From positions 38,701 through 102,700 of the forward strand of contig CAYFXC010000003.1 of assembly GCA_964347045.1 (NCBI GenBank): a stretch of 64,000 bases of DNA, read 5' to 3'. Positions 1 to 21,736 of the stretch are shown piece after piece. The notes beneath the pieces are model-generated. The model saw nothing but the letters and a program-made list of their open reading frames with translations, did not search any database and was not told where the DNA came from. Position 1 is the first letter of the stretch. Each line of letters begins with the position of its first letter. The stretch comes from an uncultured archaeon (GTDB taxonomy: Archaea; Asgardarchaeota; Hermodarchaeia; Hermodarchaeales; Hermodarchaeaceae). Both the position numbers and the translations under genes were made by a program.

Positions 1-506
1 ATCAGCGTCGAATCGCCACCCGACCAGATCAAATGACTGACTTTATGGAAGACGCCTACGCTAATGCGAAAATTCCCTTTATTGCTACTGCTGTTCCCAT
101 TGCCGTTACTATAGATGAACGTGAAGCGGAAGAGGTTGACATCTGGCATGAACTCGACCAACTCGAAGGGCTTGGTCGTGATCAGAAACTGGAACTCTTT
201 GAAGAAATGAAGCGTATTCCCGCCAAGGATCGAATCTGGTTCTTGGAAGACTTGAAACGTCAAATGGCTGATGGCACGCGATTCGAGCGCGGACAAATCA
301 CACCGCCCGAAGGTCTCTTGGATAAGACAGCTGAAGAGCAGATTATTCAATCCCGTCTTGATGCCATTCCAGCGCTCAGCGAACGGGAGAAAAAAACTCT
401 GTTCAAACAGATTAGCAGCCTCCCATCTGAAGAACGCGAAGAAGTCTTCCAAACCCTCAAAGAACAATACGATATCAAAGAAGATGATGAAGAAGACAGC
501 TCCTAG
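1..506 (+). CDS. 3' end of giant single-pass surface protein, paralog 1 (5' truncated by window); cytoplasmic helical-repeat tail
   Basis: Frame is open from position 3 (QRRIATRPDQM...) and aligns with NRIATRPESM of the next gene; contains DQKLELFEEMKRIPAKDRIWFLEDLKRQMADG, shared with the two downstream giants. Confidence 0.9.
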   Translation, partial: QRRIATRPDQMTDFMEDAYANAKIPFIATAVPIAVTIDEREAEEVDIWHELDQLEGLGRDQKLELFEEMKRIPAKDRIWFLEDLKRQMADGTRFERGQITPPEGLLDKTAEEQIIQSRLDAIPALSEREKKTLFKQISSLPSEEREEVFQTLKEQYDIKEDDEEDSS

Positions 507-715
507 TCACTAGCCAAATGCAAAGACTCGAGGATCTTGGTTTCCCTTCCCTATTTCACATCGTATGTTGTCGATTTTTTCTTGTTTACTTAGTCGTTCT
601 TTCAACCGAGTATTTCAGGAAATGCATTTAAATTCGCGCGATGTGTGCTAAATGTAGTGCTACTCCAGCCATGGATATCGCTAGCATTAACCTTCAAGAT
701 GGTGGAGACCTCACC

Positions 716-3700
716 ATGAAAGCACGTTCCTTACAATTATTATTAGTTTGTTTATTGGTCATCCCCTTTGTCATGCATCCAATTTGGGGAACACCAACCC
801 CTGCTTTTACACAGGATTCAACACTTTTGGCGAATCCTGCAAACTCATCACAAATTCCGATCGCCCCATCGAGTCCTCCGATACCGAGTCCTGATTACAC
901 GGGTATAGGTGCAGCCCGTTCTGTCCATGAAATTGCAAACCGAACAGACAGCAATCAGGACATTTTCATGTATTATGATAGCACTACCCAGACCCCTTAT
1001 AATGACTCGGCTAGCGTTGACCTTCCTCCTGGCTGGACCGGCTACAAGCTCGACTATTCCATTTATGATATGTTTGAAAACCGGTGCTGGGTTATCAACC
1101 CCAGTTTCGATGGTAGTTCCAATAGTTGGACAAGTGGAGAGTTTGACGTAGTTGGCTATGATAACACCTTTAGCCAATCTTGGCAATCTGGTGTAACGGA
1201 CGTGAACGGTTTCGTTCGGGTACAAGAAAATGGTGTTTTATCAGGTGGCTTTTATCGCTATGACAATAACGATCGCACATGGTGGACACAAACATATTCA
1301 GTGAACCGAAGTGGCATCGCTTGGGCTGCTATTAAAATGGATTACTACGTAAACAGCGCCTGGGGTTCCAATGCACTCTTCAACGTCTATATCCGAATTA
1401 ACGGAACACAGGTTTGGGCTACCGGGTTCCAAGCAGTCGGAGATACCAATTGGCATAATACTGGATTTATCGAAATTGATACGGGTCTCTTCAATTTACC
1501 ATCCTCTGCTATTGAATTAGAAGTTGGAATTATATCCACCATGACAGTGGGATACAGTTCTAACGATTGGATGCAAGGTAACTTCGATAACATCGAGCTC
1601 TACCTCAATACCCGGGTTTATCCATCTGAAATTAACTTGAAAATGAATGGATTAGATGTCCAAGATGCGGCTTCTCGTGGAACTGGAACTGTCACCCAAG
1701 TGCCTTCGCCGGTATGGACAACATCCCCTGTTATGGCACAATTGAACTGGACTCCAACTCCAACACCTCCGAATCCAGATTTGGAAATTCGAGTTACGGC
1801 TATTTGTGATGTCAATCTTTACGCCAACAAAACAGCTCAAACCCTGTATTTGCAGAGCCCAACAGCCACTGGTGTACAATTTGACGCCCAAAGTGGGTCA
1901 GATACACAGTGGACTATGTACCATTTACTCGCTCTCCCTACCCAATACTGGAACGATGTGTATAATTTCACGATACCCACTGACTGGGATGTAACTTTTG
2001 TTTCAGAACCCCAACTTCCAACTGTAAATAAAGTGGGCCAATGTCAAGGCGGAAATCCTGGTGACGGTTACATCAGTATTCCGGCTACAACAATAACAAA
2101 CAGTCCTGATGGGTACTGGACGATACTAGCTGAGTCACATAACTATGTGGACTCAGTTGTGCTTCAGATACTCGATGGAACCTGGCAAACAACCTCCGCC
2201 GTTCGGACAGGAAATACTACTCGAGTTCGCGCTAGAATCCTAGATGGGTCCAATAATCCGCCAAGTGGTGTTACATCAACCCAAGCCAACGTATCCATCT
2301 ACAACCCGGATGGATCAACAATCTGGTACACTGAACTCGTAACCCCCGATGCTTCGGGTTGGGTTACCTCAACTCAGTTCACCATCGACGGCGCAACAAC
2401 GATTGGCGGACTCTACAATATTGTAGTCTTTTGGGATAATTCAACTGAAGCGGGAGAACTGGAAAACTCTTACAGCGTAACTCATGCGACCACCCTTGTT
2501 CCCCGTGAATCCACCATCTATGCCTTCTACGAGGATCAGCCACTCTATCCGAAAGTGCGATACAATGATACTGACAAAGATGTTTGGCTCTCACCACCTG
2601 CTACCGTGGAAGGTAATTGGACTACCGGTACAATTGCTTTCAACTGGATTGTCGGCACAGGTTATTATGAAGCTGAAATTAACGCTTTAGATGTCCCTGA
2701 TGTAGGCCGCTACACAATACGAATTGATGCTAACAAATCCTACTACGATGATGCATTTACATTCATCGTTATCGACATTTCTTCAGAAACTACTGTTTTC
2801 AGCCCGCAATCACCATCAGTCTCTATCTCTTGGTTAGAAAACGCTACAATTCAAGTTCAGTATAGGCGAAAAACTGATGGAGCAGGGATTAATGGCTGCA
2901 TTCCTTACGTGGATTTGCAAGCCAACTGGACTGCTGGATTTTATACTATCTGGGAAGATGGAAATGGCTGGTATTCCATTGAGCTTAACAGCACAGCTAA
3001 ACCCCTTGGCACATACGCCCTAAACATAACAATAAGTAAGGAACGGTTCCAACGCCAACAATTCTATATTATGGTCACCGTTCAAGCTCGGAATACCCAA
3101 TTTACCTACACACCACCCACAGCCGTACCTTACGAGGAGAATTCAACCATTGAAGTACTCTGTTTGGATCTTGATGCAGGGAGTGCTCCAATTCTTAACA
3201 CAACCGGGCAACTCCATTTTGAAGTTTGGAACGGAAGTATTCAATGGCCTTCTGGAATGGGCTACTTCTGGATACAAGATCTTGGTGGTGGAACCTACAA
3301 CATACTAGTGAATACGGCGTACCTACCCGGTGTGGGCAATTATAATTTTGAAATACGTCTACGATGGTATGGTGAACCCTATCACGCTAATCGTTCGCTT
3401 TCGTTAATTGTTTCTGTTAGAAAATATACAACCTCGATTAGTTATGATGCGGTTCAACCCATTCCGTGGGATGAAGACGCAAACATTACTATATACTATC
3501 ATATTGATGACACTTTGAGCACACTGCACAATGATGATCCCATTAGTGGTGCAACACTTAGCGTCACATTAAACGGAACTCCCTTAGTGTTTGGTGTTGA
3601 TTTCACTTACACTGAAATAGTTGCAGGGCAATACCTGATTACCATCTACAAATCTGAACTTGGTTTAATCACCAAATATGTACTCGGTGTCAGTGCAACT

Positions 3701-6700
3701 TATCCCTCTCAACCAAGTCCCGCCGATGACCTTTACATGGACGCATATCGATCTATAACCTTCACTGTGCGTCAGCTACGAACCCGTATCGATTATACAC
3801 CACCTGAGGCGACGCCTTTTGGCGATGATGTAATTATCATTGTTGATTACTTGGTTTTTGATGATGAAAGTTCTCATAATAATGAAGGTATCACTGATCC
3901 AGCAATTAATATCGTCGTTCAAGCTGTAGGACCCTGGACATTGAATCCGAGTGATTACACCTATACTTCATTAGGTAGCGGGTCTTACCGTATCACCATT
4001 TATGCATCAGCGCTCACATCAATTCAAACATACACAATCGCTGTTAACATTGAAGAGGTAACAACTGGTCACTATGCTCCTGCGACTCTCTCTTCAATTG
4101 ATTTCATAGTACGAACTGTATATACTTCACTGACCCCTGATGCTTTTGATCCTGCCCCTTGGGGTACAAATGTCACGATAGTAGTTCACTATTTTGTCTC
4201 AGATGCCAGTAGTTCACAAAATGGTAATCCAATAACCGGAGCCCCTATCTACGTCTCTGGTGTGGGATGGGTGCTTCCCAGCAGCCATTACACCATATCA
4301 GAACCGTCACCCGGAGCCTATTGGATTGTTATAAACACCTCTGCAGTTAGTGATTTGGGAATCTGGCAAGTCAATATCACCGTAAATTGGCCTCCTTCAC
4401 CTCCAACCTATCAAGAACGCTACCACATAGCAAATATCGATGTTACTTCACGGCTGTCTGGGTTATCACCTACCTATGTGCCCACGGTAGATTATGGTGC
4501 CGACTTTAACATTAGCCTCATCTACTATGACCTCTCAGGACATGGGAATATTGCAAATGACACTTATGGAGGTCATGTTCGAATCATTGTGTACAATGCC
4601 ACAGACGGAACTCCCCTCAATCCTATGTATTACTATATAACCGCCCTAGGTGACAACACATATAGAGTGACCATTGACACCAGTGCTTTTGGATCTGTGA
4701 ATGTCTTCCACGATTTCCGAATTAATGCTACATGGGATGCAGGCTTTATCCCATTCTATGGTAATGCTTCCACAACTGTCCGAGTATATGTTGTTGGCAC
4801 CAAAACTACGGTTCTTTATACACCACCTGAACCCCAACCTTATGGTGATAATCTAATCTTTATTATCCAATACAATATGACTGAAGCTCCATACACAGCA
4901 ATCGATAACACAACTGGAGACGTACACATCAATGCAATCTGCACGAGTCATCCAGCAATAACCCTTGTTTATAGTGTAGTAATGATTAACAATGGCTTCA
5001 ATGGCTATCGATTAATTATCGATACAAGCAACTTCCCCGAACTCGGGCAGTTCACCTTCCGCGTAAATGTCACCTGGCCGCCAAATGTCGCCCCCTACTA
5101 TCAATCTCATTCAATTTTGATGAGTGGATATCTACGGGCAATCCACACAACCCTTACTTATGATATTTTTGGTCCACTCTATTGGGGCGACACGCTCATT
5201 CTCTATGCAACCTACGTTGATGTTGACCATGATGTGGTTCTCTCTGATCCCACTAACACAACAGTAACCACATCGATAAGCTGGACCGGTTGGTCGGTCC
5301 TTCAAATCTTTCCCAATGGTACCTATCAAATCCAAGTACCAACAGAAAACGAACTGGTCGGATTAGCAAACTTCACTCTGGAGTTTGCCAGCAACTTCTA
5401 TGAAACTAGAACAACGATAGTCCAATTTACAATAAATCCACTGCCACTTTTCGTATCCATACTCTCCACATCCCCCTGGACTGCTGAATATGCCGATGAG
5501 GTTGTTGTGACTGTTCAAGTTATTGATATCTATGGTCGACGAATCAATGATTCCACTGTCACATATCATTGGGGTGGGTTCCCCTCCGCACCTATGACTT
5601 TCATTGGCAATGGTGTCTATAATGTCTCCTTTGCTGCTAATCAAGATGTTGGAACATGGTTAGTTTCAATCGAAGCGGTAAAAATTAATTGCCAAACCGG
5701 AATTGGTTCAGTAACACTATACATCCTCCCCACCGACACTATTCTTACACTATTGACTCCCACAATTGTTACAGTTGTAGGTTCCAGTTTCGAAATCTCC
5801 GCGAATTTCAGCACCGCTGATGGCAATCCAATCATTACTGCAACGGTGCTCTTCGTCTGGGCAGGTGGCAGTGGATCTCTCATCCATGTTGGGCAAGGCA
5901 TCTACAACGCGACCATTGATAGCCTCGGATTAGAACTAGGTCAATTTAGCCTCTATGTCACCGCAAGCACACCAAATGCAGTTGAACGCTTCGATATCGT
6001 GAACGTGTTTCTTGTGGTCATTCCTACCGATTTATCCCCCTCTGATTCAATTATCACTGAATACTGGGGTACTAACTTCACAATCAATGTCTACTTCAAT
6101 GATACCTTCCATAACGTTCCCATCACGGGCGCAAACGTGACCTATTTCTGGGGCACAATGATTGGTCAAATGCAGGAAACCGGTCCACCCGGCTGGTATT
6201 CTATTACCCTTCCAACGACCATTTTTGCCGCTGGGGCCACTTACGAGGTAGTGTGTGCGTCTGATGTGCCAACCTACGAATTTGGTATAAGTGTTATTAC
6301 TGTCCATATAATCGAACAAGAAACCGATTTAGCACTAACTGCTGCTGGAATCTATTTTGAACCTCTCGACATGTACACTGAATTGAACATCACGGGGTGG
6401 ACAGTCCCGCGAAGTGACACACTATTTCTCTACTTCAACTTCACTGATACCAACGGCGAACCAATCACCGATGCCCTCGGTTCTTATAATTGGCTTTATG
6501 GTAGTGGCGTACTAACCTACAATGCAGGATTATACTACGCCGAAATAAATGTCAACGAAACCTCACCTGGAACATACTTTATTGATATCACCTTAAGTCG
6601 TCAAAACTACCAAACAGCACAAATCCTCAATCTTCCAGTTACAGTCACATTAGTACGAACTGCAATCTTAGGTCTTGAAGATAGTTTGCAACTCAATACA

Positions 6701-7609
6701 GGAACCGCATACACCTTCTCTTGCACAGTATGGGATTTAGATCATAACATCCCCATTAACCACTCAACTGTTATTATCGTCATCCCAGGAATATCGCCTG
6801 ATTCAGGTTGGGAGCTCATCAACCTCGGAAATGGAACATACATCTTGCCTGGAGTCGCATTTCCGTTGGAAGATGCAATGGTTGCTCAAGTTACAGCCGA
6901 ATCCGGCTTAGTCTACGCCACAGCCACACATCAAATCAACATCCAAGTAACTATCCATCCTGTCATTGAAGCGACACTCCGACTTGGTCTCCTCGCGGCA
7001 ATCATCGGAATCATCATCCTCATCGCTTGGCTCGCTTACACTAGGGTCTTTGCAATACCTTGGCTTGTTCGTAAAATGCGAAGCATGTCTACAACCCTCG
7101 GAAAAGGTAAAACACCAAGCCTATCCAACCGAGACATCAATCGAATCGCTACTCGGCCCGAATCCATGGAAACCATTATCGAACCCGCCTATGGCGCTAT
7201 AGGTGTCACTGTAGCTGCAACTGTTCTTCCGGCCGCGATCACACTAGAAGAACGCGAAGCCGAAGACGAAATCATCTGGCGGGAACTTGAAAAACTTGAA
7301 GGCCTAGGCCATGACCAGAAACTAGAACTGTTCGAAGAAATGAAACGTATCCCCGCCAAGGACCGCGTCTGGTTCCTCGAAGACCTCAAAGCACAAATGG
7401 CTGATGGCGCGCGCTTTGGACGTGTACCTACTGAACCGTCTCCTGTTCCCGAAGGGGTTGATCCTCTCATTCATGCCCGTCTTCAAGCGCTGGACGCTCT
7501 GGGAACCGAAGAGAAGGAAGCAGTTGTCGAACAACTCCGTGGTCTCTCCAAGGAAGAACAGGAAGAAGTTATCAAAGCGCTCGAAGACACAACACGAAAA
7601 AATGAATAG
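716..7609 (+). CDS. Giant surface glycoprotein, paralog 2: signal peptide, many ~100-aa Ig-like beta repeats, one TM helix, conserved cytoplasmic tail
   Basis: ATG 716 follows GGTGGAG and gives a signal-peptide-like N-terminus (MKARSLQLLLVCLLVIPF); recurring pwg.n.ti.v.y.d / g.G.Y.i.i.t motifs; many N-x-S/T sequons; TM LGLLAAIIGIIILIAWLAY followed by basic residues. Confidence 0.9.
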   Translation: MKARSLQLLLVCLLVIPFVMHPIWGTPTPAFTQDSTLLANPANSSQIPIAPSSPPIPSPDYTGIGAARSVHEIANRTDSNQDIFMYYDSTTQTPYNDSASVDLPPGWTGYKLDYSIYDMFENRCWVINPSFDGSSNSWTSGEFDVVGYDNTFSQSWQSGVTDVNGFVRVQENGVLSGGFYRYDNNDRTWWTQTYSVNRSGIAWAAIKMDYYVNSAWGSNALFNVYIRINGTQVWATGFQAVGDTNWHNTGFIEIDTGLFNLPSSAIELEVGIISTMTVGYSSNDWMQGNFDNIELYLNTRVYPSEINLKMNGLDVQDAASRGTGTVTQVPSPVWTTSPVMAQLNWTPTPTPPNPDLEIRVTAICDVNLYANKTAQTLYLQSPTATGVQFDAQSGSDTQWTMYHLLALPTQYWNDVYNFTIPTDWDVTFVSEPQLPTVNKVGQCQGGNPGDGYISIPATTITNSPDGYWTILAESHNYVDSVVLQILDGTWQTTSAVRTGNTTRVRARILDGSNNPPSGVTSTQANVSIYNPDGSTIWYTELVTPDASGWVTSTQFTIDGATTIGGLYNIVVFWDNSTEAGELENSYSVTHATTLVPRESTIYAFYEDQPLYPKVRYNDTDKDVWLSPPATVEGNWTTGTIAFNWIVGTGYYEAEINALDVPDVGRYTIRIDANKSYYDDAFTFIVIDISSETTVFSPQSPSVSISWLENATIQVQYRRKTDGAGINGCIPYVDLQANWTAGFYTIWEDGNGWYSIELNSTAKPLGTYALNITISKERFQRQQFYIMVTVQARNTQFTYTPPTAVPYEENSTIEVLCLDLDAGSAPILNTTGQLHFEVWNGSIQWPSGMGYFWIQDLGGGTYNILVNTAYLPGVGNYNFEIRLRWYGEPYHANRSLSLIVSVRKYTTSISYDAVQPIPWDEDANITIYYHIDDTLSTLHNDDPISGATLSVTLNGTPLVFGVDFTYTEIVAGQYLITIYKSELGLITKYVLGVSATYPSQPSPADDLYMDAYRSITFTVRQLRTRIDYTPPEATPFGDDVIIIVDYLVFDDESSHNNEGITDPAINIVVQAVGPWTLNPSDYTYTSLGSGSYRITIYASALTSIQTYTIAVNIEEVTTGHYAPATLSSIDFIVRTVYTSLTPDAFDPAPWGTNVTIVVHYFVSDASSSQNGNPITGAPIYVSGVGWVLPSSHYTISEPSPGAYWIVINTSAVSDLGIWQVNITVNWPPSPPTYQERYHIANIDVTSRLSGLSPTYVPTVDYGADFNISLIYYDLSGHGNIANDTYGGHVRIIVYNATDGTPLNPMYYYITALGDNTYRVTIDTSAFGSVNVFHDFRINATWDAGFIPFYGNASTTVRVYVVGTKTTVLYTPPEPQPYGDNLIFIIQYNMTEAPYTAIDNTTGDVHINAICTSHPAITLVYSVVMINNGFNGYRLIIDTSNFPELGQFTFRVNVTWPPNVAPYYQSHSILMSGYLRAIHTTLTYDIFGPLYWGDTLILYATYVDVDHDVVLSDPTNTTVTTSISWTGWSVLQIFPNGTYQIQVPTENELVGLANFTLEFASNFYETRTTIVQFTINPLPLFVSILSTSPWTAEYADEVVVTVQVIDIYGRRINDSTVTYHWGGFPSAPMTFIGNGVYNVSFAANQDVGTWLVSIEAVKINCQTGIGSVTLYILPTDTILTLLTPTIVTVVGSSFEISANFSTADGNPIITATVLFVWAGGSGSLIHVGQGIYNATIDSLGLELGQFSLYVTASTPNAVERFDIVNVFLVVIPTDLSPSDSIITEYWGTNFTINVYFNDTFHNVPITGANVTYFWGTMIGQMQETGPPGWYSITLPTTIFAAGATYEVVCASDVPTYEFGISVITVHIIEQETDLALTAAGIYFEPLDMYTELNITGWTVPRSDTLFLYFNFTDTNGEPITDALGSYNWLYGSGVLTYNAGLYYAEINVNETSPGTYFIDITLSRQNYQTAQILNLPVTVTLVRTAILGLEDSLQLNTGTAYTFSCTVWDLDHNIPINHSTVIIVIPGISPDSGWELINLGNGTYILPGVAFPLEDAMVAQVTAESGLVYATATHQINIQVTIHPVIEATLRLGLLAAIIGIIILIAWLAYTRVFAIPWLVRKMRSMSTTLGKGKTPSLSNRDINRIATRPESMETIIEPAYGAIGVTVAATVLPAAITLEEREAEDEIIWRELEKLEGLGHDQKLELFEEMKRIPAKDRVWFLEDLKAQMADGARFGRVPTEPSPVPEGVDPLIHARLQALDALGTEEKEAVVEQLRGLSKEEQEEVIKALEDTTRKNE

Positions 7610-7780
7610 TCATATTCATCGGGGCACTGAACGTGTCCCATCGCATCTTTTATTGCGACAAGCAAGCATATTAGCTCAAAAAAACATCTCAGGAAAAACA
7701 AATAAAACCTCAATTTAATATTTTAGTAATGCGGGGTTATCAACCTTAGGCAGGGTAATTTGAAAAAGAGGTGTGCTTCA

Positions 7781-10700
7781 TTGGACAAAAAAATAAGTTT
7801 TTTGACTTTATTAGCCTTAATGGCCGTCATCATTTTTTCTTCTCCTCTAGAATTGAACTCATATCCCACTGTGATGGCTGCTTCACCTCCCAACTCTCCA
7901 TATGAAGGCTTAGGTGATTCCCTCGATGTTACTGAATTTGCTCGAAATGATAGCACCCTCTTCTCAAACGGAATAAACGGTACTGCATTTTCTTATCTTG
8001 GTAGCTGGTATCCCTCAGGTTATCGCGGCTATTACTTACACACCTCTGTTTCTAACCTTCGTCGAACCGAAGATCCGGTCCCAAATGGTGATTTTGACCA
8101 ATACGATGAACCCGGCAATAATTGGACTTTAACAGAATCTACAGGTGGACTAGTAAAATCAATAGATAACGTCACGGGCGGGAATCCCGGCTACTGTCTT
8201 GACACTGAACTCAAATACGGAAACGTCCCCAATACTGCCTACGCCTGGATTGACAATGATTTCACATATACTTCATCCATCACCCCAGATAGTCTCAAAT
8301 TATATTTCGACATTAGATTTTCTGAAGATGTCTCAAAAGCCGGATGGTTATATGTCAAAGTATCTGTTAGATATCAAGCTGCAGAAGTTGGAAGTTGGAC
8401 CAATACAACGGACCTTTATAGCCCAACTTCTTGGGATTCTCTTAGTTTTCCAACAGCTGCCGTCAATGGAACTGTAACCATTCGCATTACAATTGAAAAA
8501 CGGGGCGGAGGGAGTGCTAACACAAAGGGACATATCTACTTTGATAATTTCCGGTATGTCATTGGCACAGATAGTAAACCCAGTGAAGTTGAATTAATGG
8601 TCAATGGAAACCCTGTCTCCGATACTTTTGGAAATGCCGGAGAAGTTGATATTTATGCTGACCCAAGTTCCAAGGAACAAGCACAACTGGCAATATGCTG
8701 GGACTCCGACGAGTCGTTTCAATTCACCTCTCCCACTTATTCAGATATCAGCTTTGATTACGAGTACTCTATGCGAATAAAAAGTGAGAATCCAAGTGCT
8801 GCCTCCACAGATTTTTCAAATGTTGCAGACGAAGCCCCCACTTGGAATATCAACTACACAATTCCCAGTTCCCGACCTCCCAGTGGATACACAGGGTATA
8901 GCTATGGTTTGTATTTACGTTCAACATGGACTCTTGTTGAAGTTAGAAATAGTACCAATGACCTCGTTCCAACAACGCAATACAACTACAACGCAACTAG
9001 CCAATTCTTTAAATTAAACGAAGACATTGCTTCTGTTGGTGACCTGTTCCGAGTTATTGCTTCGAGTCTAAACTACATTTTAGACATTTTTCCCCAAAAA
9101 AGTAGTTCCGGCTTGGGTCCTTGGACCAATATCTCCTCAAGTGATTATTATGTAAAAGGTGATTGGATTCGAGTTCTTGCCACATTACGACCAATTGGGC
9201 CGTCGGATAATGTCGCAGACGTATCGATATTTTATCCAAACGGTACAATTTGGAATAGCGATTCCACACCAGGCATTGATTCAAGTAAAAACACTATCAC
9301 AAGCATAGCTTGGCAAATAAATCAGATGGATTCAGACAACGCAGGCAGTCAATGGCAGATTTCAGTCTCATTTGATAATGACACGCAATGCGGTATGCGT
9401 GCGCAATACTTCACCATTGTCATCGAAACAACTGCTGAAAAAATCGATCCGGATCCCGGAACCCGTGTTCTGTGGGGTCAAACTGTCTTTGTAAATGTAA
9501 CCTGGGCAAACAATGATACAGGTGACTACATTCTCGATGCCGCCGCACGAATTCGATACATTGATCGTAATCTCCAAACGCGATACGAGAATATGACTGC
9601 CAATGGACAAGGGGCATATTCGCTTGACTTTGGAACAAACCTGATGAGCCCCAGTCGCACTGCAAAATTCTACATCGAATTCTTCCACTACGGATATGTG
9701 AACATCACAGGAACACAACTCACCTATACAATCAATCTCGTAAATGATATCAGTTATACAATGGTGCGGCCTTCCCAGCAAACTGGACCCGATGAATATA
9801 CAGCAGAAACTACCAGCGATGAAGGCTATATCAGTCAAGTAAAATTCTACGATTTATTTGAACAAGCCTATGTTCGCAATGATACAGGCGCATGGAGCGG
9901 AAATGTACGAGTTAACTTCACTCGTTATCATTGGACGGAAACTTGGACCTATATCACAGAAGGAAGTTTTATCCCAAATGCCTCTGACCCGATAATCTTC
10001 GAAAAGATTGATTCCCAATATTCCGGAGTATCTCAAGTAAAGTATGAAGTTACCATGCGCATCGAAAACGCCGCTTGGGATTACCAACAGCAAAACTTCA
10101 CCATTATTATTCGCATTGTTCAAATCGCGACTGATTTGGATGCTGTTCGCACTGTAATCTCTTATCCGCCCACAGGCGATGGATGGACACAATATAATAA
10201 CAACACGGATACCTATGAGGTTCGTATTTTCTGGAACGAAAACTTCAATATCACCATTTTTTACCACTTTGCAGAGAATGACACCGGAATTACAGGTGCA
10301 ACTTCAAATCTCCTTTTTGGCTCTTTGAAAAGAACACTCACTGAACAAGCAAATGGATTCTACAATATCATACTCGACACTAAAGACGTGGGACTTGGAA
10401 TCACAGACATTCTGGTGAACGCAAGCTATCCCACCTATGCGTCCCAAACAATTCAAATAAGGCTAATTGTCGAAACCCGCGAAACAGAACTCACCAAGGA
10501 CTATTTGGGCGCTCTTGTTGACCTTCCATATGATGATGACTTTACTGTAATCTTCACGTACAATGATATTGTAACAGGAACCCCAACAGCGATTATTGAT
10601 GCAACCGCATCTATTGTGGGCTATCCAGCTGGCAAATATTCAGTGAACAACAATGGAGACGGGACGTATACTATTACATTCTGGGGGAACATTACTGAAA

Positions 10701-13700
10701 CTATCTATTATGTTACGATTACATTTAGTCGCACAAATTATACTACCCAATCTAATTACTTCGAAATAACAGTACGTCCGATTCATACCATCGGGTTCGG
10801 ACTTGCGGACTCTGTTTCTCTTCCTTGGGGTCAAAATGTAACTATCACTTTATCCTACAATGACACCGATCATAGTGATATTGCAATTTATGGTGCTGAC
10901 ATATCATTTGTTTCAACTGATGGATTCTTCAATTCTTCAAACGATATTCTGGGCTTCGACTATTGGCTTGTTATCAACCCAGACGGATCCTACACTTTGA
11001 TTCTGAATACAACAAGAGTCTCAGCAGGAATGCAGCCTTTCACACTCATAATTACCTTTAGTAAGACTCATTATGACAATTCTGAAGTGTATGTATCCTT
11101 CCAAGTCCGAGACAACCTCACAGTGCTTCAACGCCAGTCACTAATTCCGGGGACAAATGTACCCTGGGGCGACAATCTAACCATCATATTAACCTATTCT
11201 AATTTGGATGATAGCAACTCTCCGATTCCTGGAGCGATTATTGATTGTGATTGGGACGAGTTCTATTGGAGCTATTCCTACAATGCTACTTTGCAAGCCT
11301 ATGTTCTGGTAATCCGAACAATAAGTCGAACCGAAGGAAGCTATACAATCACAATAAATGCCGCGAAAAATCATTACCAAGAATTTACAATAATTGAGAA
11401 CTTCGTTATTCGAAAAATCCAAACTACCCTTGATGCGGATCCTGACTATATTCCAAATTGGCCATTAGGATTCAATGTAACAGTTCGTGTTGACTACTAT
11501 GACGCGGATCATGGGGGGCAAGTACCCTTTGCAGAAGTCGTGACTGATTGGAATGCAAGCTATTACTCGATTATTTTCTACGGAAATGGAACTTACGATT
11601 TAATCTTAAACACAAGCTGTCGGGGTGTGGGGAGTCATACAATTAACGTTACACTATGGCGCGATCATTATGCACAACGAACCGTTATAGTATCTTTAAC
11701 ACTGGTACCAATTCCGCTATTTGTTGAAATTCTATCCTCCTCGCCAGTGACAACTGAATATAATTCAACTAATTTTGTAGTAGTTACTGTTCGTGTAACA
11801 GATCTCTATGACCGCCTGATCAATGATTCCACAACAACATATCACTGGTTTGCAGGTAGCGGAACGATGACATTTATTGAAGCTGGTATATACAATGTCT
11901 CTTTCTCTGCTGCCGCTGATACTGGGTCATACGTGGTAACGGTTCAAGCCAACAAAACTGGTTATCAAATCGGTATTGGTTTCATTATACTTAACATTCT
12001 GCCCACCGATACCATCCTTAGCCCAATAACCTCAAGTCTTCAACTAGTAGTGGGTGAAAGCTTCGAAATTTCTATCTTATTTACAACCATATATGGGACG
12101 GGTATTGCAGATGCCAATATAACATATCTTTGGGCGCTAAACAGAACTGGCTCCCTAGCTTTTGTTGGTGGTAACACCTATAATGGCACGCTAGATAGTT
12201 CCGGATTAACAGCAGGACCCTACCTCGTCTATGTAACTGCAGGTGGTCCGAATGTCGTTGAACGTACAACAACTATCAGCGTTTTATTAGTTTTGATACC
12301 AACAGAACTCCAAGCCTTTCCAACGATCCAGGAAGTATATTATGGTGCAGATTTCATACTCCAAGTCTACTTCAATGACACCAATAACAATCTGCCCATA
12401 GATGGTGCAAATGTCTCCTGTATTTGGGGCACTCTAACCGGATATCTCCTACCAACAGGAACGCCAGGTTGGTACAACATTTCCCTATCGACGACAATTT
12501 ACCCCGTTGGAACTTACATGCTTACTCTTTCCGCGGATTTCGAGGGATATCAATTTGCCCTAGCATATGTTGACGTAATCATTCGCCCTCAACCGACAAC
12601 ATTAGACTTGGTATTAATCCAAACCTATTATGCACCACAAAATCTAGTAACAAATCAAACAGGAATTTCATGGCAGGTTCCTCGAGGTGAGCTTCTTATA
12701 TTGTACTTCAATTTCACGGATGCTTCAAACAATACTATTACTGGAGCAATTGGAACTTACAGCTGGACCTATGGTCTAGGGGTCCTTGAATTCACAAATG
12801 GGTTATATGTTGCCACCATAGACCTAACTCAGGCAACTCCTGGATATTACTCTCTTCTAATCACATTATCTCTTCAAAACTATGAAAGCGGTCAAAGCCC
12901 ATCCTATGACCTCAATGTAATTCCAATTCCCGCTGTAATTCAAGTTATTAACAATCCTGGAACCGTAGATACAGGAACTACATGGGACCTAGTAGTGTAC
13001 TATAATGATACCTATCACAATTTACCAATAATTGGTGGCAATCTCACAGTAACTATCCCTCAACTCAATTTCGAAAATATGGACATGCTTGACAATAGAA
13101 ATGGATATTATTCGTTTACTGTTCCTGCCCTCTTATTAGACAACAGACTCGAAATCGAAATAAACGCACCAGGTGGTTTACTATATGCTTCTGATACCGA
13201 ACAAATTATTGTCTATGTCAGACTGGGGCAAGTGGCTCAGGTTACTATAACACTTGGTCTTGTTGCCGCGGTGATTGGAATTGTCATGATTATATTGTGG
13301 TTAGCTTATACACGAGTCTTGGCAATTCCTTGGCTTGTCCGGAAGATGCGTAAAATGAGCCGAACCATTGACAAAGGAAAAACACCCAAACTTTCAAAGA
13401 GTGATGTTGGTCGGATTGGCTCTCGATCAGATTTGATGGCTCATATTGCCGAACCTGCCTATGAGACCATTAGAATACCAATTCCTGCAGCAGTCCTACC
13501 TGCGGTAATTGAACATGAAGAACGTTATGCAGAGGATGAAGCCATCTGGGCCGATTTAAAGAAATTGCCACAACTAGAATACGACCAAAAACTTGAATTA
13601 TTCCAAGAAATGAAACGCATCCCTGCGACCGAACGCGTATGGTTCCTCGAAGACCTAAAACAACAAATGGCTGATGGTACCCGATTTGCTCGGAAAGCCA

Positions 13701-14089
13701 AAGAGCCCACTCTTGCACCAGAGCTTGAAAAGGAAATAGAAGAACGATTGAAACAATTTCCCCAATTAAGTAAGGCGGAAAAAGACCGCATCACCAAACA
13801 ACTTCGTAATGTTCCCAAAGAGGAATGGGAGGAAGTATTCAACACTCTCGCAATTGCATCTAAACCAGAGGTTATTGAAGGTGATGAAGTTCTTCGTCCT
13901 GATGAATTACCAGCTATAACTGTAGAAGAACGGGAAAAATTACTTGAAGAATTGAAAGGGTTATCCGAGGAAGAACGGCGAAAAGTATTGCAAACATTTC
14001 GAGAGAAAAAAACCAAGGAAACTGCAGAAGGAGAGGTCGTTAAGGGTGAAAAAGAATTTGAAGTTGACGAATCAGACGACAAACAATAG
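7781..14089 (+). CDS. Giant surface glycoprotein, paralog 3, same architecture
   Basis: TTG 7781 after GAGGTG; signal peptide, Ig-like repeats, TM LGLVAAVIGIVMIILWLAY, tail DQKLELFQEMKRIPATERVWFLEDLKQQMADG plus two degenerate copies. Confidence 0.9.
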   Translation: MDKKISFLTLLALMAVIIFSSPLELNSYPTVMAASPPNSPYEGLGDSLDVTEFARNDSTLFSNGINGTAFSYLGSWYPSGYRGYYLHTSVSNLRRTEDPVPNGDFDQYDEPGNNWTLTESTGGLVKSIDNVTGGNPGYCLDTELKYGNVPNTAYAWIDNDFTYTSSITPDSLKLYFDIRFSEDVSKAGWLYVKVSVRYQAAEVGSWTNTTDLYSPTSWDSLSFPTAAVNGTVTIRITIEKRGGGSANTKGHIYFDNFRYVIGTDSKPSEVELMVNGNPVSDTFGNAGEVDIYADPSSKEQAQLAICWDSDESFQFTSPTYSDISFDYEYSMRIKSENPSAASTDFSNVADEAPTWNINYTIPSSRPPSGYTGYSYGLYLRSTWTLVEVRNSTNDLVPTTQYNYNATSQFFKLNEDIASVGDLFRVIASSLNYILDIFPQKSSSGLGPWTNISSSDYYVKGDWIRVLATLRPIGPSDNVADVSIFYPNGTIWNSDSTPGIDSSKNTITSIAWQINQMDSDNAGSQWQISVSFDNDTQCGMRAQYFTIVIETTAEKIDPDPGTRVLWGQTVFVNVTWANNDTGDYILDAAARIRYIDRNLQTRYENMTANGQGAYSLDFGTNLMSPSRTAKFYIEFFHYGYVNITGTQLTYTINLVNDISYTMVRPSQQTGPDEYTAETTSDEGYISQVKFYDLFEQAYVRNDTGAWSGNVRVNFTRYHWTETWTYITEGSFIPNASDPIIFEKIDSQYSGVSQVKYEVTMRIENAAWDYQQQNFTIIIRIVQIATDLDAVRTVISYPPTGDGWTQYNNNTDTYEVRIFWNENFNITIFYHFAENDTGITGATSNLLFGSLKRTLTEQANGFYNIILDTKDVGLGITDILVNASYPTYASQTIQIRLIVETRETELTKDYLGALVDLPYDDDFTVIFTYNDIVTGTPTAIIDATASIVGYPAGKYSVNNNGDGTYTITFWGNITETIYYVTITFSRTNYTTQSNYFEITVRPIHTIGFGLADSVSLPWGQNVTITLSYNDTDHSDIAIYGADISFVSTDGFFNSSNDILGFDYWLVINPDGSYTLILNTTRVSAGMQPFTLIITFSKTHYDNSEVYVSFQVRDNLTVLQRQSLIPGTNVPWGDNLTIILTYSNLDDSNSPIPGAIIDCDWDEFYWSYSYNATLQAYVLVIRTISRTEGSYTITINAAKNHYQEFTIIENFVIRKIQTTLDADPDYIPNWPLGFNVTVRVDYYDADHGGQVPFAEVVTDWNASYYSIIFYGNGTYDLILNTSCRGVGSHTINVTLWRDHYAQRTVIVSLTLVPIPLFVEILSSSPVTTEYNSTNFVVVTVRVTDLYDRLINDSTTTYHWFAGSGTMTFIEAGIYNVSFSAAADTGSYVVTVQANKTGYQIGIGFIILNILPTDTILSPITSSLQLVVGESFEISILFTTIYGTGIADANITYLWALNRTGSLAFVGGNTYNGTLDSSGLTAGPYLVYVTAGGPNVVERTTTISVLLVLIPTELQAFPTIQEVYYGADFILQVYFNDTNNNLPIDGANVSCIWGTLTGYLLPTGTPGWYNISLSTTIYPVGTYMLTLSADFEGYQFALAYVDVIIRPQPTTLDLVLIQTYYAPQNLVTNQTGISWQVPRGELLILYFNFTDASNNTITGAIGTYSWTYGLGVLEFTNGLYVATIDLTQATPGYYSLLITLSLQNYESGQSPSYDLNVIPIPAVIQVINNPGTVDTGTTWDLVVYYNDTYHNLPIIGGNLTVTIPQLNFENMDMLDNRNGYYSFTVPALLLDNRLEIEINAPGGLLYASDTEQIIVYVRLGQVAQVTITLGLVAAVIGIVMIILWLAYTRVLAIPWLVRKMRKMSRTIDKGKTPKLSKSDVGRIGSRSDLMAHIAEPAYETIRIPIPAAVLPAVIEHEERYAEDEAIWADLKKLPQLEYDQKLELFQEMKRIPATERVWFLEDLKQQMADGTRFARKAKEPTLAPELEKEIEERLKQFPQLSKAEKDRITKQLRNVPKEEWEEVFNTLAIASKPEVIEGDEVLRPDELPAITVEEREKLLEELKGLSEEERRKVLQTFREKKTKETAEGEVVKGEKEFEVDESDDKQ

Positions 14090-15704: not shown

Positions 15705-16472
15705 ATGACGAAACCTAATGACGGTGAATTGATGTTAAATCTCATTAAGGAACGTCACGCTATACGCGACTTTATCACCGACCAACCGGTGAGTGATGAA
15801 CTCCTCTTCAAGATTATCGAAGCTGGAGGATACGCTCCCAGCGCTGAAAACCAACAACCTTGGCGTGTTATTATCGTCCGAGACAAAGCTATACAGCGTC
15901 GCATTGGAGAAATTGCTGTATTACGGACCATTGAATTATTTGGACGAATCACTCCTCGCCAAGAAATCGAACGACGCCTTCATTATGTAGAAGCGTTACC
16001 AAGCCGGGAGCGAACCATTGATTGGCTCATCACTGGTAGGAGATTTGAGTACATCAAGGGTGAACCAGAAACTGATGGCGCACCTATTCTCCTTGTATTG
16101 GTCGTTGAATCAACACATGTTGGTAATTCACAACCCACACTACGTGGAACGGGTGGTGTCTATGGATGGAGTAGCTTGCGCCATTCTATTATTGCCGGAA
16201 GTATGTTTATGCAAAACTGCTGGCTTGCAGCGTCTGCCCTGGGTTTAGGGGCTTGTGTGTCCAGTGTACAACTAGATCACTATGATGATATCCGTGAGAT
16301 TTCCGAATTACTCAATATTCCACAACCCCATTGGACACCCATCATGTGCCTTGCCATTGGCTATCCCAAATTGCCCCGAACTCGTGGGCCCCCACGTCAG
16401 CGACCTGAAGAAATCACTTTTGTTGACACATGGGGTAAGAACTGGCAACCCCAAAAGAAGACTGGAAAGTAA
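15705..16472 (+). CDS. Nitroreductase family flavoprotein
   Basis: ERHAIRDF, APSAENQQPW, QNCWLAASALGLG and IGYP motifs. Confidence 0.9.
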   Translation: MTKPNDGELMLNLIKERHAIRDFITDQPVSDELLFKIIEAGGYAPSAENQQPWRVIIVRDKAIQRRIGEIAVLRTIELFGRITPRQEIERRLHYVEALPSRERTIDWLITGRRFEYIKGEPETDGAPILLVLVVESTHVGNSQPTLRGTGGVYGWSSLRHSIIAGSMFMQNCWLAASALGLGACVSSVQLDHYDDIREISELLNIPQPHWTPIMCLAIGYPKLPRTRGPPRQRPEEITFVDTWGKNWQPQKKTGK

Positions 16473-16489
16473 TCGAGGCGAGTTAACCG

Positions 16490-17032
16490 ATGGATCAATT
16501 CAAAACATTACAGGAATTCATTGTCGAATGGATGGATGCGCTTTGGTGGAGCATGCGTGACCGTATTGGAGCTCTCTCCATGATTGAAACCTTACAAAAC
16601 TCTTGGCAAACTGCGGGGCGAAAAGTAGGAGAAATTGGTAAAGCCGAAGGTCTAAACATCATCAAAACGGTTGAAGCCGCCCATTCCATTTTTGGACGCA
16701 CAGTCACAGTTCAAAACAACACCGTTCTGGTCACCACCTGTCCAATCTGGGATAAGATTCTGGCAGGTCAACTTGAATATGGGCTCCGTTGTGAGGAATT
16801 CATATGTGCCCCATACCTTACTGGCATAAAAGATGTCTTTGGAGCGAAGGAAGCCATTGTTGAAACCAATCTCCGGTTGGCACATGTAACTCGCGCCCGA
16901 TTAGAATACAAGCTCAAAAAACTAAAAACAGCGAATACCACGGATCCCAAAAACCAAGCGCAGATTTCAGAACTTAAAAAACAACTCAGCCAACAACCTG
17001 CAACACCTGCTTGCATTTTCCATGTAAAATAA
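16490..17032 (+). CDS. Hypothetical protein with V4R-like Cys pattern
   Basis: TCP...C....C...terminal CIF pattern; 17 nt after the nitroreductase gene. Confidence 0.6.
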   Translation: MDQFKTLQEFIVEWMDALWWSMRDRIGALSMIETLQNSWQTAGRKVGEIGKAEGLNIIKTVEAAHSIFGRTVTVQNNTVLVTTCPIWDKILAGQLEYGLRCEEFICAPYLTGIKDVFGAKEAIVETNLRLAHVTRARLEYKLKKLKTANTTDPKNQAQISELKKQLSQQPATPACIFHVK

Positions 17033-17357
17033 CTGCTTTATCAACCCAACAATTCCAAGTCTGGCACTATTGATTTTACTAGCACAAGCCGCTCTATTTC
17101 GCTAGGATTGACTTTCAAATAGATAAACTTAATTTCACGGTAAGCAAACGTTTCAAAAACTACTTCCTAGTTTCTTGGACATGATAGTGCCTAAAATCAC
17201 CTTACGGTTTTCTGCTTCTCCTGATTCCCCTTCATTATCTGTAATCTTTTTTGAATCTCAATAGATCCTGAAAATGATTGCACATCCAGTTGCGAATGGT
17301 TCTTAAGCAAAACCCCCCAATGGCGACCTACTAATCAACTGCGATACTAACCACTCG

Positions 17358-18749
17358 GTGTCACGAATGGCTTCGAAAGCCGCTAAAAAGCAAATTGAAC
17401 CAGTCTTTTCCCCAATGTCTATTGTTCTAATCGGGGCAAGTGATAAACTCCGTTCCTTCGGATTCCAAGTTGCTCGTTCACTCATCCGCAATTTCGATGG
17501 GCCAGTTCACTACGTCAATCCCACCGAAGCAAGTGTCCTCGGATCACCAACCTTTGCCACTATCAGTGAAGTTCCCGAAGGCTCCCATCTCTGGGTCATA
17601 ACCATACCCACAAAAGATTTTGCAAAAACAATTCGACTGATAGGAAAACGCCAACCCGTGGGAATCATCCTACTTTTTGAACTTCCACAGACCCATTTCG
17701 ATGTTGCCCGTAAAGCAATATCCAAAGTGCCTTGTCCTGTTATAGGTCCAAGAAGCGCCGGATTTTACAATTCGTCAACTGCCTTCGACCTGATACCGCT
17801 TCCACCTGAAGTACTTCCACGACCTCGAAAAGGATTCGCAGGGATAATCACCGATAATCGTGATGTTGCTTATGGGTTGCTTGAACAGGTAACCAAATAT
17901 CGGTGCGGGGTATCCCTTTTTGTTGATCTTGGCGAATCTCTTGGAACTACTGAAACCGATGTGCTTGCTTTTCTAGCCAAAGATAGTGAAACTCGTGTCA
18001 TTCTTCTTGGCGCAGGTCAAATATCGAACTCCTTGAAATTTCGAACTGCCATCCGAAATGCCCATCGGGTAAAGAAACCTGTGATTGTTTCACTTTGGCC
18101 ACAAGATCTCACTCGTCAACTTGGGCTACACCGCCGAACTGGAAAAACAATTACTCCCTTAACAATCGACCTAGCAAAACAACACAACTTGATGATCACA
18201 TCATCTTGGGGGCGTGCGGTGGACCTTGCACTCCTTTGTCAAACCCAACCTCTCCCCGAAGGCTTAGGAGTTGTAGCGATTTCTAATTTTGGTGCATATT
18301 GCGTCTATGCCGCGAGTGCCCTCCATGATTCATCATTGCAATTAGCCAAACTCCAACCCAACACCCTTACAGCTCTCAAGGAAAATCTCCCTCCCTACTG
18401 CCGCAACGACAATCCCATTGGCTTGTATGCCAACGCAGACGAAGAACGATTAGACACCACGCTTCGCATTGTCCTTGCTGATCCCAACACTCACAGCGTC
18501 CTTATTGCCCTCCTTCCCAATTCACCCAACATTGACCCTGATTATCTCTATGTCATGCTCGGACAACGCCTCAAAGCTCTCAAAATCCCCAAAACTATCA
18601 TTGGTGTCATTCCGGCTACAGAGCGCGACAATCTCCTCATAGGAAGTCTCGAGCGCCTTAATATCCCCATCTTTTCAAACTCCCACCGAGCGGTTACAAC
18701 CCTAGAAAACGCATATTTACTCAACACCCTTCTCAAATCCAAAAAATAG
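17358..18749 (+). CDS. Divergent NDP-forming acyl-CoA synthetase alpha-like protein, probably non-catalytic
   Basis: Collinear with 19066-20475 (IGAS, VNP, VIGP, DLG, NP motifs), but the SHTG phospho-His motif reads RRTG. Confidence 0.75.
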   Translation: MSRMASKAAKKQIEPVFSPMSIVLIGASDKLRSFGFQVARSLIRNFDGPVHYVNPTEASVLGSPTFATISEVPEGSHLWVITIPTKDFAKTIRLIGKRQPVGIILLFELPQTHFDVARKAISKVPCPVIGPRSAGFYNSSTAFDLIPLPPEVLPRPRKGFAGIITDNRDVAYGLLEQVTKYRCGVSLFVDLGESLGTTETDVLAFLAKDSETRVILLGAGQISNSLKFRTAIRNAHRVKKPVIVSLWPQDLTRQLGLHRRTGKTITPLTIDLAKQHNLMITSSWGRAVDLALLCQTQPLPEGLGVVAISNFGAYCVYAASALHDSSLQLAKLQPNTLTALKENLPPYCRNDNPIGLYANADEERLDTTLRIVLADPNTHSVLIALLPNSPNIDPDYLYVMLGQRLKALKIPKTIIGVIPATERDNLLIGSLERLNIPIFSNSHRAVTTLENAYLLNTLLKSKK

Positions 18750-18761
18750 GAGTGGGTACCA

Positions 18762-19019
18762 ATTTACAAAGCATATGTCTTAATCAAAGTAGCCCCCCAC
18801 CAAGAAGATAACATCCTTCGCGAACTCAGCAAATTTGCCGCCATATCCGAAGCACACAAACTATTCGGGTTATACGATGTTATTGTTGAAATCGAACGAA
18901 AGGGAATGCGCGATATTATGGAAACGGTTTCGAAAATTCGTGCTATTAAAGGTGTACTCGATACGATAACTAACCTTGTAGCAGATTTCGAAATGGATGT
19001 CCATGGCGCTCCGCTCTAA
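18762..19019 (+). CDS. Stand-alone Lrp/AsnC ligand-binding (RAM) domain protein, missing from the ORF track
   Basis: IYKAYVLIKVAPHQEDNILRELSKFAAISEAHKLFGLYDVIVEIE...KIRAIKGVLDTITNLV; homologous to 33981-34211; ATT at 18762 lies 7 nt after GGAGTG. Confidence 0.85.
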   Translation: MYKAYVLIKVAPHQEDNILRELSKFAAISEAHKLFGLYDVIVEIERKGMRDIMETVSKIRAIKGVLDTITNLVADFEMDVHGAPL

Positions 19020-19065
19020 GAGACAAACGGCGTATATCGAAACGAAGGTTCATCGAGGGGCTTAC

Positions 19066-20475: not shown

Positions 20476-20575
20476 TTTTTTTTCCTTCATAAGATTGGAC
20501 AACGGTACTGTTTATAATTACATAAGTTTACCATTGCTTTATTCAACTTTCCTCGTGTAGGCGAGGTGTACACTT

Positions 20576-21736
20576 TTGATCAATGTAAGTATTGTTGGTG
20601 CTGGACAAACAAAGTTCGGACGGCACAACGATTACAATTTACGTGAACTCTTCGCTTTAGCAGCCTATGAGGCCATCGAAGACGCTGGTATTACACCCAA
20701 AGATGTTGAAGCGGCATTCATAGGTAACCTATCTGCAGATCAATTTAATCGACAATCACACATTGCTCCAATGATGGCCGATGCTGCAGGAATGACGGGA
20801 ATTACTGCTACTAAATGTGAAGCTGCTTGCGCCTCGTCAGCTACGGCGTTACGAGCCGCAATTCTTGCCATCGAATCTGGGCAACATGATGTGGTCATGG
20901 CTGCGGGCGTCGAGAAGATGACTGACCTCCCGACTCCGGGGGTCATTGAGATATTAGCAATGGCGGCTGACCAGCCCTTTGAGGCAGAACCTGGAATTAC
21001 GTTTCCGGGAATTTTTGCCCTCTTGGCAGTTGCTCATATGGCGAAATATGGTACAACTAAAGAGCAAATGGCAGCGGTTGCTGTCAAGAATCATGCCAAC
21101 GCGATGCACAATCCCTTAGCGCAATATCAAAAAGAAATCACTATTGATACGGTGTTATCAGCACGTCTGGTCGCTTGGCCATTGGGTCTCTTTGATTGTT
21201 CTCCCATCACTGATGGAGCTGCTGCAGTGATTCTTACACGAAATAAATTGGCGAGAAAATTCACTGACACTCCTGTGAAAATCAAGGCCTCTGCGCAGGC
21301 AAACGATACAATGGATATGTGTGATCGCGCTGACCTTACAACTCTCTATTCCGCAAGAATAGCCGCGCAAAGAGCATATAAACAAGCGAAGATAGGTCCA
21401 CAAGATATCGACTTTGCAGAAGTTCACGACTGCTTCACTATAGCCGAAATCATTGCCACCGAAGACCTTGGCTTCTTCACACCAGGAATGGGTGGGCAAG
21501 CTGTCGAAGAGGAATATACCGCAATAGATGGCGAGTTCGCAATCAATACCAGTGGTGGACTCAAAGCCAAAGGACACCCAGTCGGTGCCACTGGGGTAGC
21601 TCAAATTATTGAATTGTACCATCAACTACGAAACGAAGCTGGTAAACGACAAGTCGATTCGCCCAACTATGGACTTGCCCATAACGTCGGAGGGTCAGGA
21701 GCCACAGCCGTAGTCCATATTTGTGAACGATGGTGA
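20576..21736 (+). CDS. Archaeal thiolase (acetyl-CoA C-acetyltransferase family)
   Basis: EAACASS catalytic Cys, EVHDCF, KGHPVGATG, HNVGG. Confidence 0.93.
   Translation: MINVSIVGAGQTKFGRHNDYNLRELFALAAYEAIEDAGITPKDVEAAFIGNLSADQFNRQSHIAPMMADAAGMTGITATKCEAACASSATALRAAILAIESGQHDVVMAAGVEKMTDLPTPGVIEILAMAADQPFEAEPGITFPGIFALLAVAHMAKYGTTKEQMAAVAVKNHANAMHNPLAQYQKEITIDTVLSARLVAWPLGLFDCSPITDGAAAVILTRNKLARKFTDTPVKIKASAQANDTMDMCDRADLTTLYSARIAAQRAYKQAKIGPQDIDFAEVHDCFTIAEIIATEDLGFFTPGMGGQAVEEEYTAIDGEFAINTSGGLKAKGHPVGATGVAQIIELYHQLRNEAGKRQVDSPNYGLAHNVGGSGATAVVHICERW

Follow-up and report, generated by a model that had tools for sequence, protein, structure and literature searches.

C-terminally membrane-anchored glycoproteins of the surface-layer (S-layer) type are the dominant kind of envelope protein in archaea, and we know of no member of the Hermodarchaeia that has been imaged so far. 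Cultured Asgard archaea of the class Lokiarchaeia show neither an ordered lattice nor an S-layer, and the 'complex surface proteins' on their cells have yet to be identified (PMC9834061); when attached, they move by crawling with the help of Lokiactin (PMC13716822). Here we analyse a stretch of 64,000 nucleotides (the window) from an uncultured archaeon of the Hermodarchaeia, corresponding to positions 38701-102700 of contig C3 in a 2.58-Mb, 83-contig assembly. Genes for large surface proteins, all read from the plus strand, take up the window's first 14.1 kb. They belong to a family of type-I surface proteins that is old, multi-copy and confined to Asgard archaea and has exchangeable heads, and a literature search returned no published description of either the family or its C-terminal tail.

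Three family genes lie side by side in the window, in whose coordinates all plus-strand features below are given. Gene 1 is present as its 3' end, which encodes the cytoplasmic tail (3..506, after a scaffold gap), gene 2 (641..7609) encodes 2322 aa as listed and gene 3 (7760..14089) encodes 2109 aa from a TTG start as listed. Searching the genome with the tails by tblastn gave six genes with the giant-family C-terminus: the three in tandem on C3, one of 2690 aa on contig C6 and two in tandem on contig C18. Of the C18 pair, one encodes 2952 aa and the other, which runs off the contig end, more than 1722 aa (L002 10233-15398, minus strand). A sequence-only reading of the window had described three adjacent giant paralogues. 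This is accurate for genes 2 and 3, whereas gene 1, which starts ~3.8 kb upstream of the window (L003 6925), is not giant and encodes ~1430 aa with a different head.

The family has a common architecture, consisting of a signal peptide, a head, a stalk of beta-rich ~100-aa repeats, one transmembrane (TM) helix and a cytoplasmic tail. By hydropathy, each complete protein contains a single N-terminal hydrophobic signal and a single C-terminal TM segment, and 180-254 residues lie beyond the TM helix. Lys and Arg number 5-7 in the first 22 residues of this stretch, against 0-1 in the 15 residues preceding the helix. N-x-S/T sequons number 50-79 per ectodomain (2.1-3.2 per 100 aa), and not one occurs in the tails; Asn content is likewise 6-7% in the ectodomain and 0-1.6% in the tail. 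Given the positive-inside rule and this sequon bias, the tail is predicted to be cytoplasmic and the proteins to be single-pass and of type I. The tail has a second, short hydrophobic patch that is rich in Pro and does not resemble a TM segment.

The TM helix carries its own set of conserved residues. In gene 2 it occupies 6977..7054 and combines a GxxxA motif, a Trp and an Arg at the inner boundary, as judged from hydropathy, column conservation and an AlphaFold2 (AF2) helix at residues 2-26 with a predicted local distance difference test score (pLDDT) of 95. In gene 3 the helix and the basic juxtamembrane segment together span 13247..13426 (TM helix 13247-13324), as defined by alignment, hidden Markov model (HMM) and hydropathy. 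Across the alignment, G is found at position 4 in 85% of rows and A or G at position 8 in 96% (the GxxxA motif), while Trp-18 is kept in 96% and Arg-23 in 100%. The helix is conserved at the level of its sequence, beyond mere hydrophobicity, and the motif set suggests specific helix-helix packing in the membrane.

The central claim of the sequence-only reading, that a cytoplasmic block recurs in all three genes, is upheld, and the block had been placed correctly. It comprises 42 codons, at 141-266 in gene 1, ~7274-7399 in gene 2 and ~13544-13669 in gene 3. By tblastn the tails of genes 2 and 3 match at 58% over 202 aa (E 3e-69) and those of genes 1 and 2 at 53% over 156 aa (E 8e-45), with E values across the paralogues from 3e-69 to 3e-13, a similarity well in excess of chance. 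Block identity is 86% between genes 1 and 2, 74% between genes 2 and 3 and 69% between genes 1 and 3. The term 'near-invariant' therefore describes a ~35-aa core of the three tandem genes, but not the six paralogues together, whose blocks are 48-88% identical. Conservation is about equally high in the TM helix and the juxtamembrane segment, a point that the sequence-only reading had passed over.

The block lies in the first of two or three three-helix modules with which the tail ends. From the membrane inwards, the tail begins with a basic juxtamembrane helix; a hydrophobic patch containing Pro and a run of acidic residues then lead on to module A, with module B behind it. In gene 1, module A is found at 129..284 (hmmsearch domain E 5.7e-28) and module B, a degenerate copy of it, at 345..470 (domain E 2.1e-18; E 1e-3 with the module-A HMM). 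In gene 2 the basic juxtamembrane helix and a KGK-x-P segment (7055..7156; alignment, AF2 and orthologue identity) precede module A at 7262..7417 (E 1.6e-26; AF2 helices 90-105, 112-124 and 127-143) and module B at 7469..7591 (E 5.4e-16; AF2 helices 163-171, 177-187 and 192-209). Gene 3 has module A at 13532..13690 (E 5.3e-26) and two further units, B1 and B2, at 13733-13858 and 13901-14005 (E 3.8e-19 and 0.076). The module-A HMM finds module B and the module-B HMM finds module A (domain E 1.5e-4 to 2.6e-2). These reciprocal searches indicate that the two modules are homologous and of one repeat type, and they bear out the degenerate downstream copies that had been proposed, one in gene 1, one in gene 2 and two in gene 3. 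The unlinked paralogues on C6 and C18 share module A.

An AF2 model of the tail, built from a 57-sequence alignment, has a mean pLDDT of 81 and a predicted template-modelling score (pTM) of 0.33. It predicts helices at the TM segment (2-26), the juxtamembrane region (29-42) and residues 60-73, and after the last of these comes a hydrophobic stretch modelled with less confidence. Module A has a loop of the G-L-G type behind its first helix, and a variable linker joins it to module B. In this monomer model the tail would be an extended chain whose modules do not pack against one another. Four columns of the 57-row alignment are invariant (L104, R130, F133 and Q140); near-invariant columns include K115, L118, M122, I125, W132, D136, M141 and R146 and, in the juxtamembrane segment, R23, P28, R32 and R35. 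By helical periodicity, R130, F133, D136 and Q140 share one face of module A helix 3, and the R..F..D/E...Q polar residues are invariant in an alignment that includes three rows of Thor/Loki type.

Protein and profile searches with the tail gave no match in Pfam, NCBIfam or PDB sequences, and the ESM Atlas held no usable match for the whole tail or for modules A and B together. A helix-hairpin-helix (HhH) assignment for the L..IPGLG/S loop was considered but found no support in the fold searches: no HhH Pfam family was matched, and the fold resembled generic three-helix bundles only, with a best Z of 6.9. Motifs of the YxxPhi type and WH2-like motifs were also dropped, since each occurs in single paralogues and is not conserved. 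In the tails of the two C18 paralogues (L002 1132-1962 and 10233-11048, minus strand), modules A and B are separated by 70-90 aa of P/K/E-rich linker that includes stretches of four Pro. The linker may simply be a spacer, but profilin and SH3-type domains classically bind polyproline.

Across all 15 pairs of paralogues, the proportion of synonymous differences (pS) in the block is 0.64-0.96, which is saturated, against a proportion of nonsynonymous differences (pN) of 0.09-0.38 (Nei-Gojobori), and nucleotide identity is 52-79%. Synonymous sites are saturated along the whole genes too. That the block differs mostly by synonymous changes, as the sequence-only reading had put it, is true of genes 1 and 2 (pS 0.67, pN 0.09) and marginally so of the other pairs. 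We further carried out the proposed comparison of substitution rates by domain, setting gene 2 against six orthologues. The stalk is 29-43% identical, with a nonsynonymous rate (dN) of 0.57-0.83, while identity rises to 65-92% in the TM helix (dN 0.055-0.23), 79-88% in the juxtamembrane helix (dN 0.07-0.12) and 89-93% in module A (dN 0.03-0.05; ratio of dN to the synonymous rate dS, omega, ~0.02-0.09), and stands at 73-79% in module B (dN 0.14-0.19). Ectodomain dN is at least 15 times that of module A, and dS is high between orthologues as well. Together these data indicate that the conservation of the tail stems from purifying selection, strongest on module A, rather than from homogenisation. 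The contrast between a fast ectodomain and a constrained tail fits a shared intracellular function.

Between orthologues, the pS of module A (0.31-0.69) is far from zero and tends to lie below that of the neighbouring domains (0.55-0.81), for which constraint on codons or RNA, or occasional exchange, could be responsible. Other metagenome-assembled genomes (MAGs) of the Hermodarchaeia contain separate orthologues of each paralogue type (genes 1, 2 and 3, C6 and C18), whose tail ends are type-specific, so the duplications must be old. Each genome in the genus encodes several module-bearing paralogues.

To follow the tail beyond this lineage, we built a profile from the six tails and compared it with 1.84 billion representative proteins. 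This gave only 66 matches at E<=1e-3, 33 of them at E<=1e-30. Nearly all lie at the C-terminal end of a large protein or of a fragment, and four are internal repeat matches. All matches with a named source are 'hypothetical proteins' from Asgard MAGs (Hermodarchaeota, Promethearchaeota, Thor-, Loki-, Hel-, Odin- and Hodarchaeota), and the Asgard assignment made from the sequence was right. The suggested search of Asgard genomes with a tail HMM matched 171/301 sampled genomes. Within the window's own family all 18 of 18 genomes carried a match; in a second family 72/76 did so (E ~1e-45) and in a third 61/68 (E ~1e-6). The second family is probably Thor-type, since its tails closely resemble database matches of which one is labelled Thorarchaeota. 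Thor-type tails retain a recognisable module A. In four other, distant families the order of elements is the same, namely a beta-rich ectodomain, a TM helix, a basic K-G-K-x-P segment, an acidic linker and a terminal unit resembling module B. Flags reading '1 TGA inside' in matches of the second family raised the idea of recoding, which was rejected on inspection as natural stop codons read through by the aligner.

The ectodomains had been called divergent, and at 25-43% identity they are; they are nonetheless homologous along their length rather than unrelated, with the exception of the first ~800 residues of gene 1, which match no other paralogue. In gene 2 a head of ~560 aa (794..2473), whose bracketing motifs of the carbohydrate-binding module (CBM) type are shared with gene 3 in the alignment consensus, is followed by a stalk of 14 tandem repeats of ~100 aa (2474..6955). 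In gene 3 the head comprises aa 41-480 (7880..9199; AF2 pLDDT 88, pTM 0.71) and the stalk has 11 detected repeats of ~100 aa (9419..13222). Repeats were counted with an iterated HMM, which also gave 17 in the C6 protein, 18 and 13 (partial) in the two C18 proteins and 4 in gene 1, and they extend down to the TM helix.

Within the gene 3 head, AF2, Foldseek and VIA together delimit a predicted jelly roll resembling CBM and galactose-binding domains (~aa 102-271, window ~8063-8572). Foldseek relates this model to CBM61, CBM4 and CBM16 with a probability of 1.0 and E ~1e-6, the best match being TmCBM61 (E 1.4e-6, TMt 0.64). VIA aligns it with a CBM at a Z of 13.4 and a root-mean-square deviation of 2.7 Å over 142 residues, and with the MAM domain of the receptor tyrosine phosphatase RPTP-mu at a Z of 11.1. 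The modelled head thus has the CBM jelly-roll fold. Whether queried with whole proteins, tails, heads or single repeats, Pfam and NCBIfam returned no match that reached threshold; these proteins matched no CBM Pfam family, and for the gene 1 type no Pfam match to a DUF2341-type head was found at E<=0.01. The label 'Ig repeat' given in the sequence-only reading finds sub-threshold matches only, to invasin, cadherin and bacterial Ig-like domains. In Pfam these are Big_1 (E 1.3e-3), Big_3_5 (1.9e-3) and Invasin_D3 (3.8e-3; 5/38 repeats), together with PKD, and among PDB sequences the weak repeat-profile matches are invasin 1cwv (E 2e-3), cadherin-23 (E 0.015), filamin and a surface-layer protein. 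An Ig-like nature of the stalk repeats is plausible.

These data allow us to propose how the two halves of the proteins might work together. The giants would form an irregular surface coat, or serve as adhesins, on wall-less Asgard cells, and their heads may bind glycans or other ligands. Given that module A is common to all paralogues and recognisable across Asgard classes, it may be where one shared partner, intracellular or in the membrane, docks, with the R130/F133/D136/Q140 face of helix 3 as the putative interface. Differing outer heads would in this way be coupled to one shared inner machinery, for which cytoskeletal, membrane-remodelling or sorting systems are candidates. That these proteins are adhesins or form a coat, and bind one shared intracellular partner through the tail, is in our view about as likely as not. 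The sequence-only reading had arrived at a similar docking model; its architectural and selective premises are confirmed, but the docking partner was not found.

Several observations weigh against such a model. No intracellular partner has come to light, and HMM searches of the organism's own genome with module A, module B and the juxtamembrane motif returned no carrier open reading frame, soluble ones included, beyond the six giants. There is no conserved neighbour to serve as a candidate partner either, the flanking genes being metabolic and different at each of the three loci. The proposed Foldseek search and VIA relate the tail to generic three-helix bundles only; its structure gives no functional lead, since the best VIA Z of 6.9 is within the noise for helical models and Foldseek E values exceed 0.7. 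The tail profile found no match in several of the sampled Asgard families (0/29, 0/21 and 0/11 genomes), the matches in distant families cover only part of it at weak E values (1e-4 to 1e-9), and in one genome weak matches fall in unrelated proteins, so that the weakest matches are not all reliable. The surface role is itself a prediction from sequence and models, and the Ig-like label comes from matches below threshold. The literature context for a coat or adhesin is suggestive only.

Could the tail act without a separate partner? It is possible, though in our view rather unlikely, that the giants associate with themselves or with one another through their tail and TM helix, which would cluster them or loosely order a coat from the inside. 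Small-xxx-small motifs are typical of TM helix packing, and the conserved motif and Trp of this TM helix would suit such association, as would the presence of several module-bearing paralogues in each genome of the genus and the construction of the modules as tandem repeats of one unit. Hetero-oligomerisation, which the sequence-only reading had offered beside docking, is only hinted at by the conserved GxxxA. The same motif could equally bind another membrane protein, however, and paralogue-specific module B units and linkers are kept among orthologues, which suggests contacts that are specific to each paralogue and not interchangeable; nor does the AF2 monomer, with its pTM of 0.33, show packing between modules. 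A role of the tail in biogenesis, sorting or stability, as an insertion or retention signal, a protrusion-targeting element or a turnover tag, strikes us as unlikely. The segment conserved most widely across classes is the basic juxtamembrane KGK-x-P segment right after the TM helix, as might be expected of a sorting element, and giant secreted proteins would presumably need dedicated handling. Simple topogenic signals do not, however, need at least 150 residues of folded, repeated modules at 89-93% identity, and no known archaeal sorting motif was detected, with neither PGF-CTERM nor any NCBIfam match.

The two conditions under which the sequence-only reading was to be abandoned, recent gene conversion between the tandem copies and a tail lying outside the cell on plain S-layer subunits, make a very improbable alternative, and both are excluded for this genome. 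The tandem gene arrangement would suit gene conversion, but paralogue dS is saturated, and recent conversion is therefore no explanation for the conservation. In all 15 pairs the block shows this saturation at its low nucleotide identity, long identical DNA tracts between copies are absent, the unlinked C6 and C18 copies carry the module, and each paralogue has its own orthologue group across genera. As for an extracellular tail, the asymmetry in Lys and Arg and the sequon-free tails place it inside; the tail is also not short and has no PGF-CTERM, unlike a plain S-layer subunit.

The docking of a common partner by module A would have a wider meaning if that partner were cytoskeletal or part of the membrane-remodelling machinery. 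The tail could be the cytoplasmic half of an Asgard-wide adhesion system in which module A couples lectin-headed giants to Lokiactin or to ESCRT/membrane-remodelling machinery, a speculative extension that we think improbable. Were it true, it would be a prokaryotic counterpart, independently evolved or ancestral, of the cadherin- or integrin-type linkage of surface to cytoskeleton, and could underlie the adhesion-dependent crawling and cell-cell contacts of cultured Asgard archaea. Protrusions, partner-cell contacts and an actin cytoskeleton are described in such cultures (PMC9834061, PMC13716822). The composition of the Asgard surface and its coupling to the interior bear on models of eukaryogenesis, and the family supplies concrete candidates for surface proteins: large, glycosylatable, lectin-headed, multi-copy per genome and recognisable in several Asgard classes. 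The tail also provides a defined bait for an intracellular partner, ~120 aa comprising modules A and B with ~90% identity as compared with ~35% in the ectodomain. Even if it only clusters or sorts the proteins, it is an unannotated domain that deserves a database entry.

Some details of the locus bear on how the genes are read. Gene 1 carries an in-frame TAA at C3:36421-36423, upstream of the window, and is crossed by a scaffold gap of 10 N (C3:38691-38700) just before window base 1. A GC-rich sequence of ~70 nt, alien to gene 1, precedes the gap, and the reading frame shifts across it. Given that orthologues from the same genus are intact (1420-1446 aa), the damage is probably an assembly or sequencing fault, or else specific to the strain, rather than the mark of a pseudogene. 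For gene 2, a TTTAAA box at 627-632 lies directly before the listed ATG at 641, and GGTGGAG precedes an ATG at 716, where the signal peptide begins; the true start is probably the ATG at 716, which gives ~2297 aa.

The genes flanking the family loci include those for enoyl-CoA hydratase, TauE, nitroreductase, ACD subunits, PAS and PfkB. The C3 cluster sits among fatty-acid and acyl-CoA genes (window 15705-21736; upstream, L003 6001-6765), namely an enoyl-CoA hydratase, two ACD-like CoA-ligase subunits, a thiolase and a nitroreductase. These surroundings agree with the hydrocarbon and fatty-acid metabolism proposed for the Hermodarchaeota (PMC8163825), and they have no evident link to the surface genes.

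Among described systems, the haloarchaeal S-layer glycoprotein resembles the family in its signal peptide, its large, heavily N-glycosylatable ectodomain and its single C-terminal TM segment. Unlike the proteins described here, haloarchaeal S-layer glycoproteins end a few residues past the anchor or are processed at PGF-CTERM, in place of a folded tail of 180-250 aa; searches of Pfam and NCBIfam gave no match to PGF-CTERM or S-layer models. Invasin, intimin and the giants built of Big domains share the long stalk of ~100-aa repeats with a distal binding head, and Invasin_D3, Big_1 and Big_3_5 are the weak best matches of the repeats, although all matches of the family's repeats to such bacterial Ig-like adhesins fall below Pfam thresholds. 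These adhesins differ in being anchored by an outer-membrane barrel or the cell wall, or secreted by a type I secretion system, and have no conserved cytoplasmic domain. The jelly roll of gene 3, set on a putatively Ig-like stalk with a single TM helix, recalls both RPTP-mu, with its MAM domain, and families CBM4, 22, 27 and 61; in contrast to RPTP-mu, the family has no catalytic cytoplasmic domain, and the CBM likeness is without a Pfam match.

The comparison with cadherins and integrins made in the sequence-only reading is one of architecture and not of homology. Pfam Cadherin (PF00028) was matched neither by the whole proteins nor by the 38 single repeats, cadherin-23 being reached only at the E of 0.015 given above, and in the tail, which has no Pfam or PDB sequence match, no catenin-binding motifs were found. 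With no sequence homology and an unrelated tail of three-helix repeats, the likeness would be a functional analogy only. Classical cadherins and clustered protocadherins likewise combine tandem beta-sandwich repeats, one TM helix and a shared cytoplasmic domain with divergent ectodomains, lie in tandem gene arrays and have a tail far more constrained than the ectodomain. Taken together, these comparisons place the family among the membrane-anchored surface glycoproteins and adhesins of archaea, here with an undescribed cytoplasmic domain.

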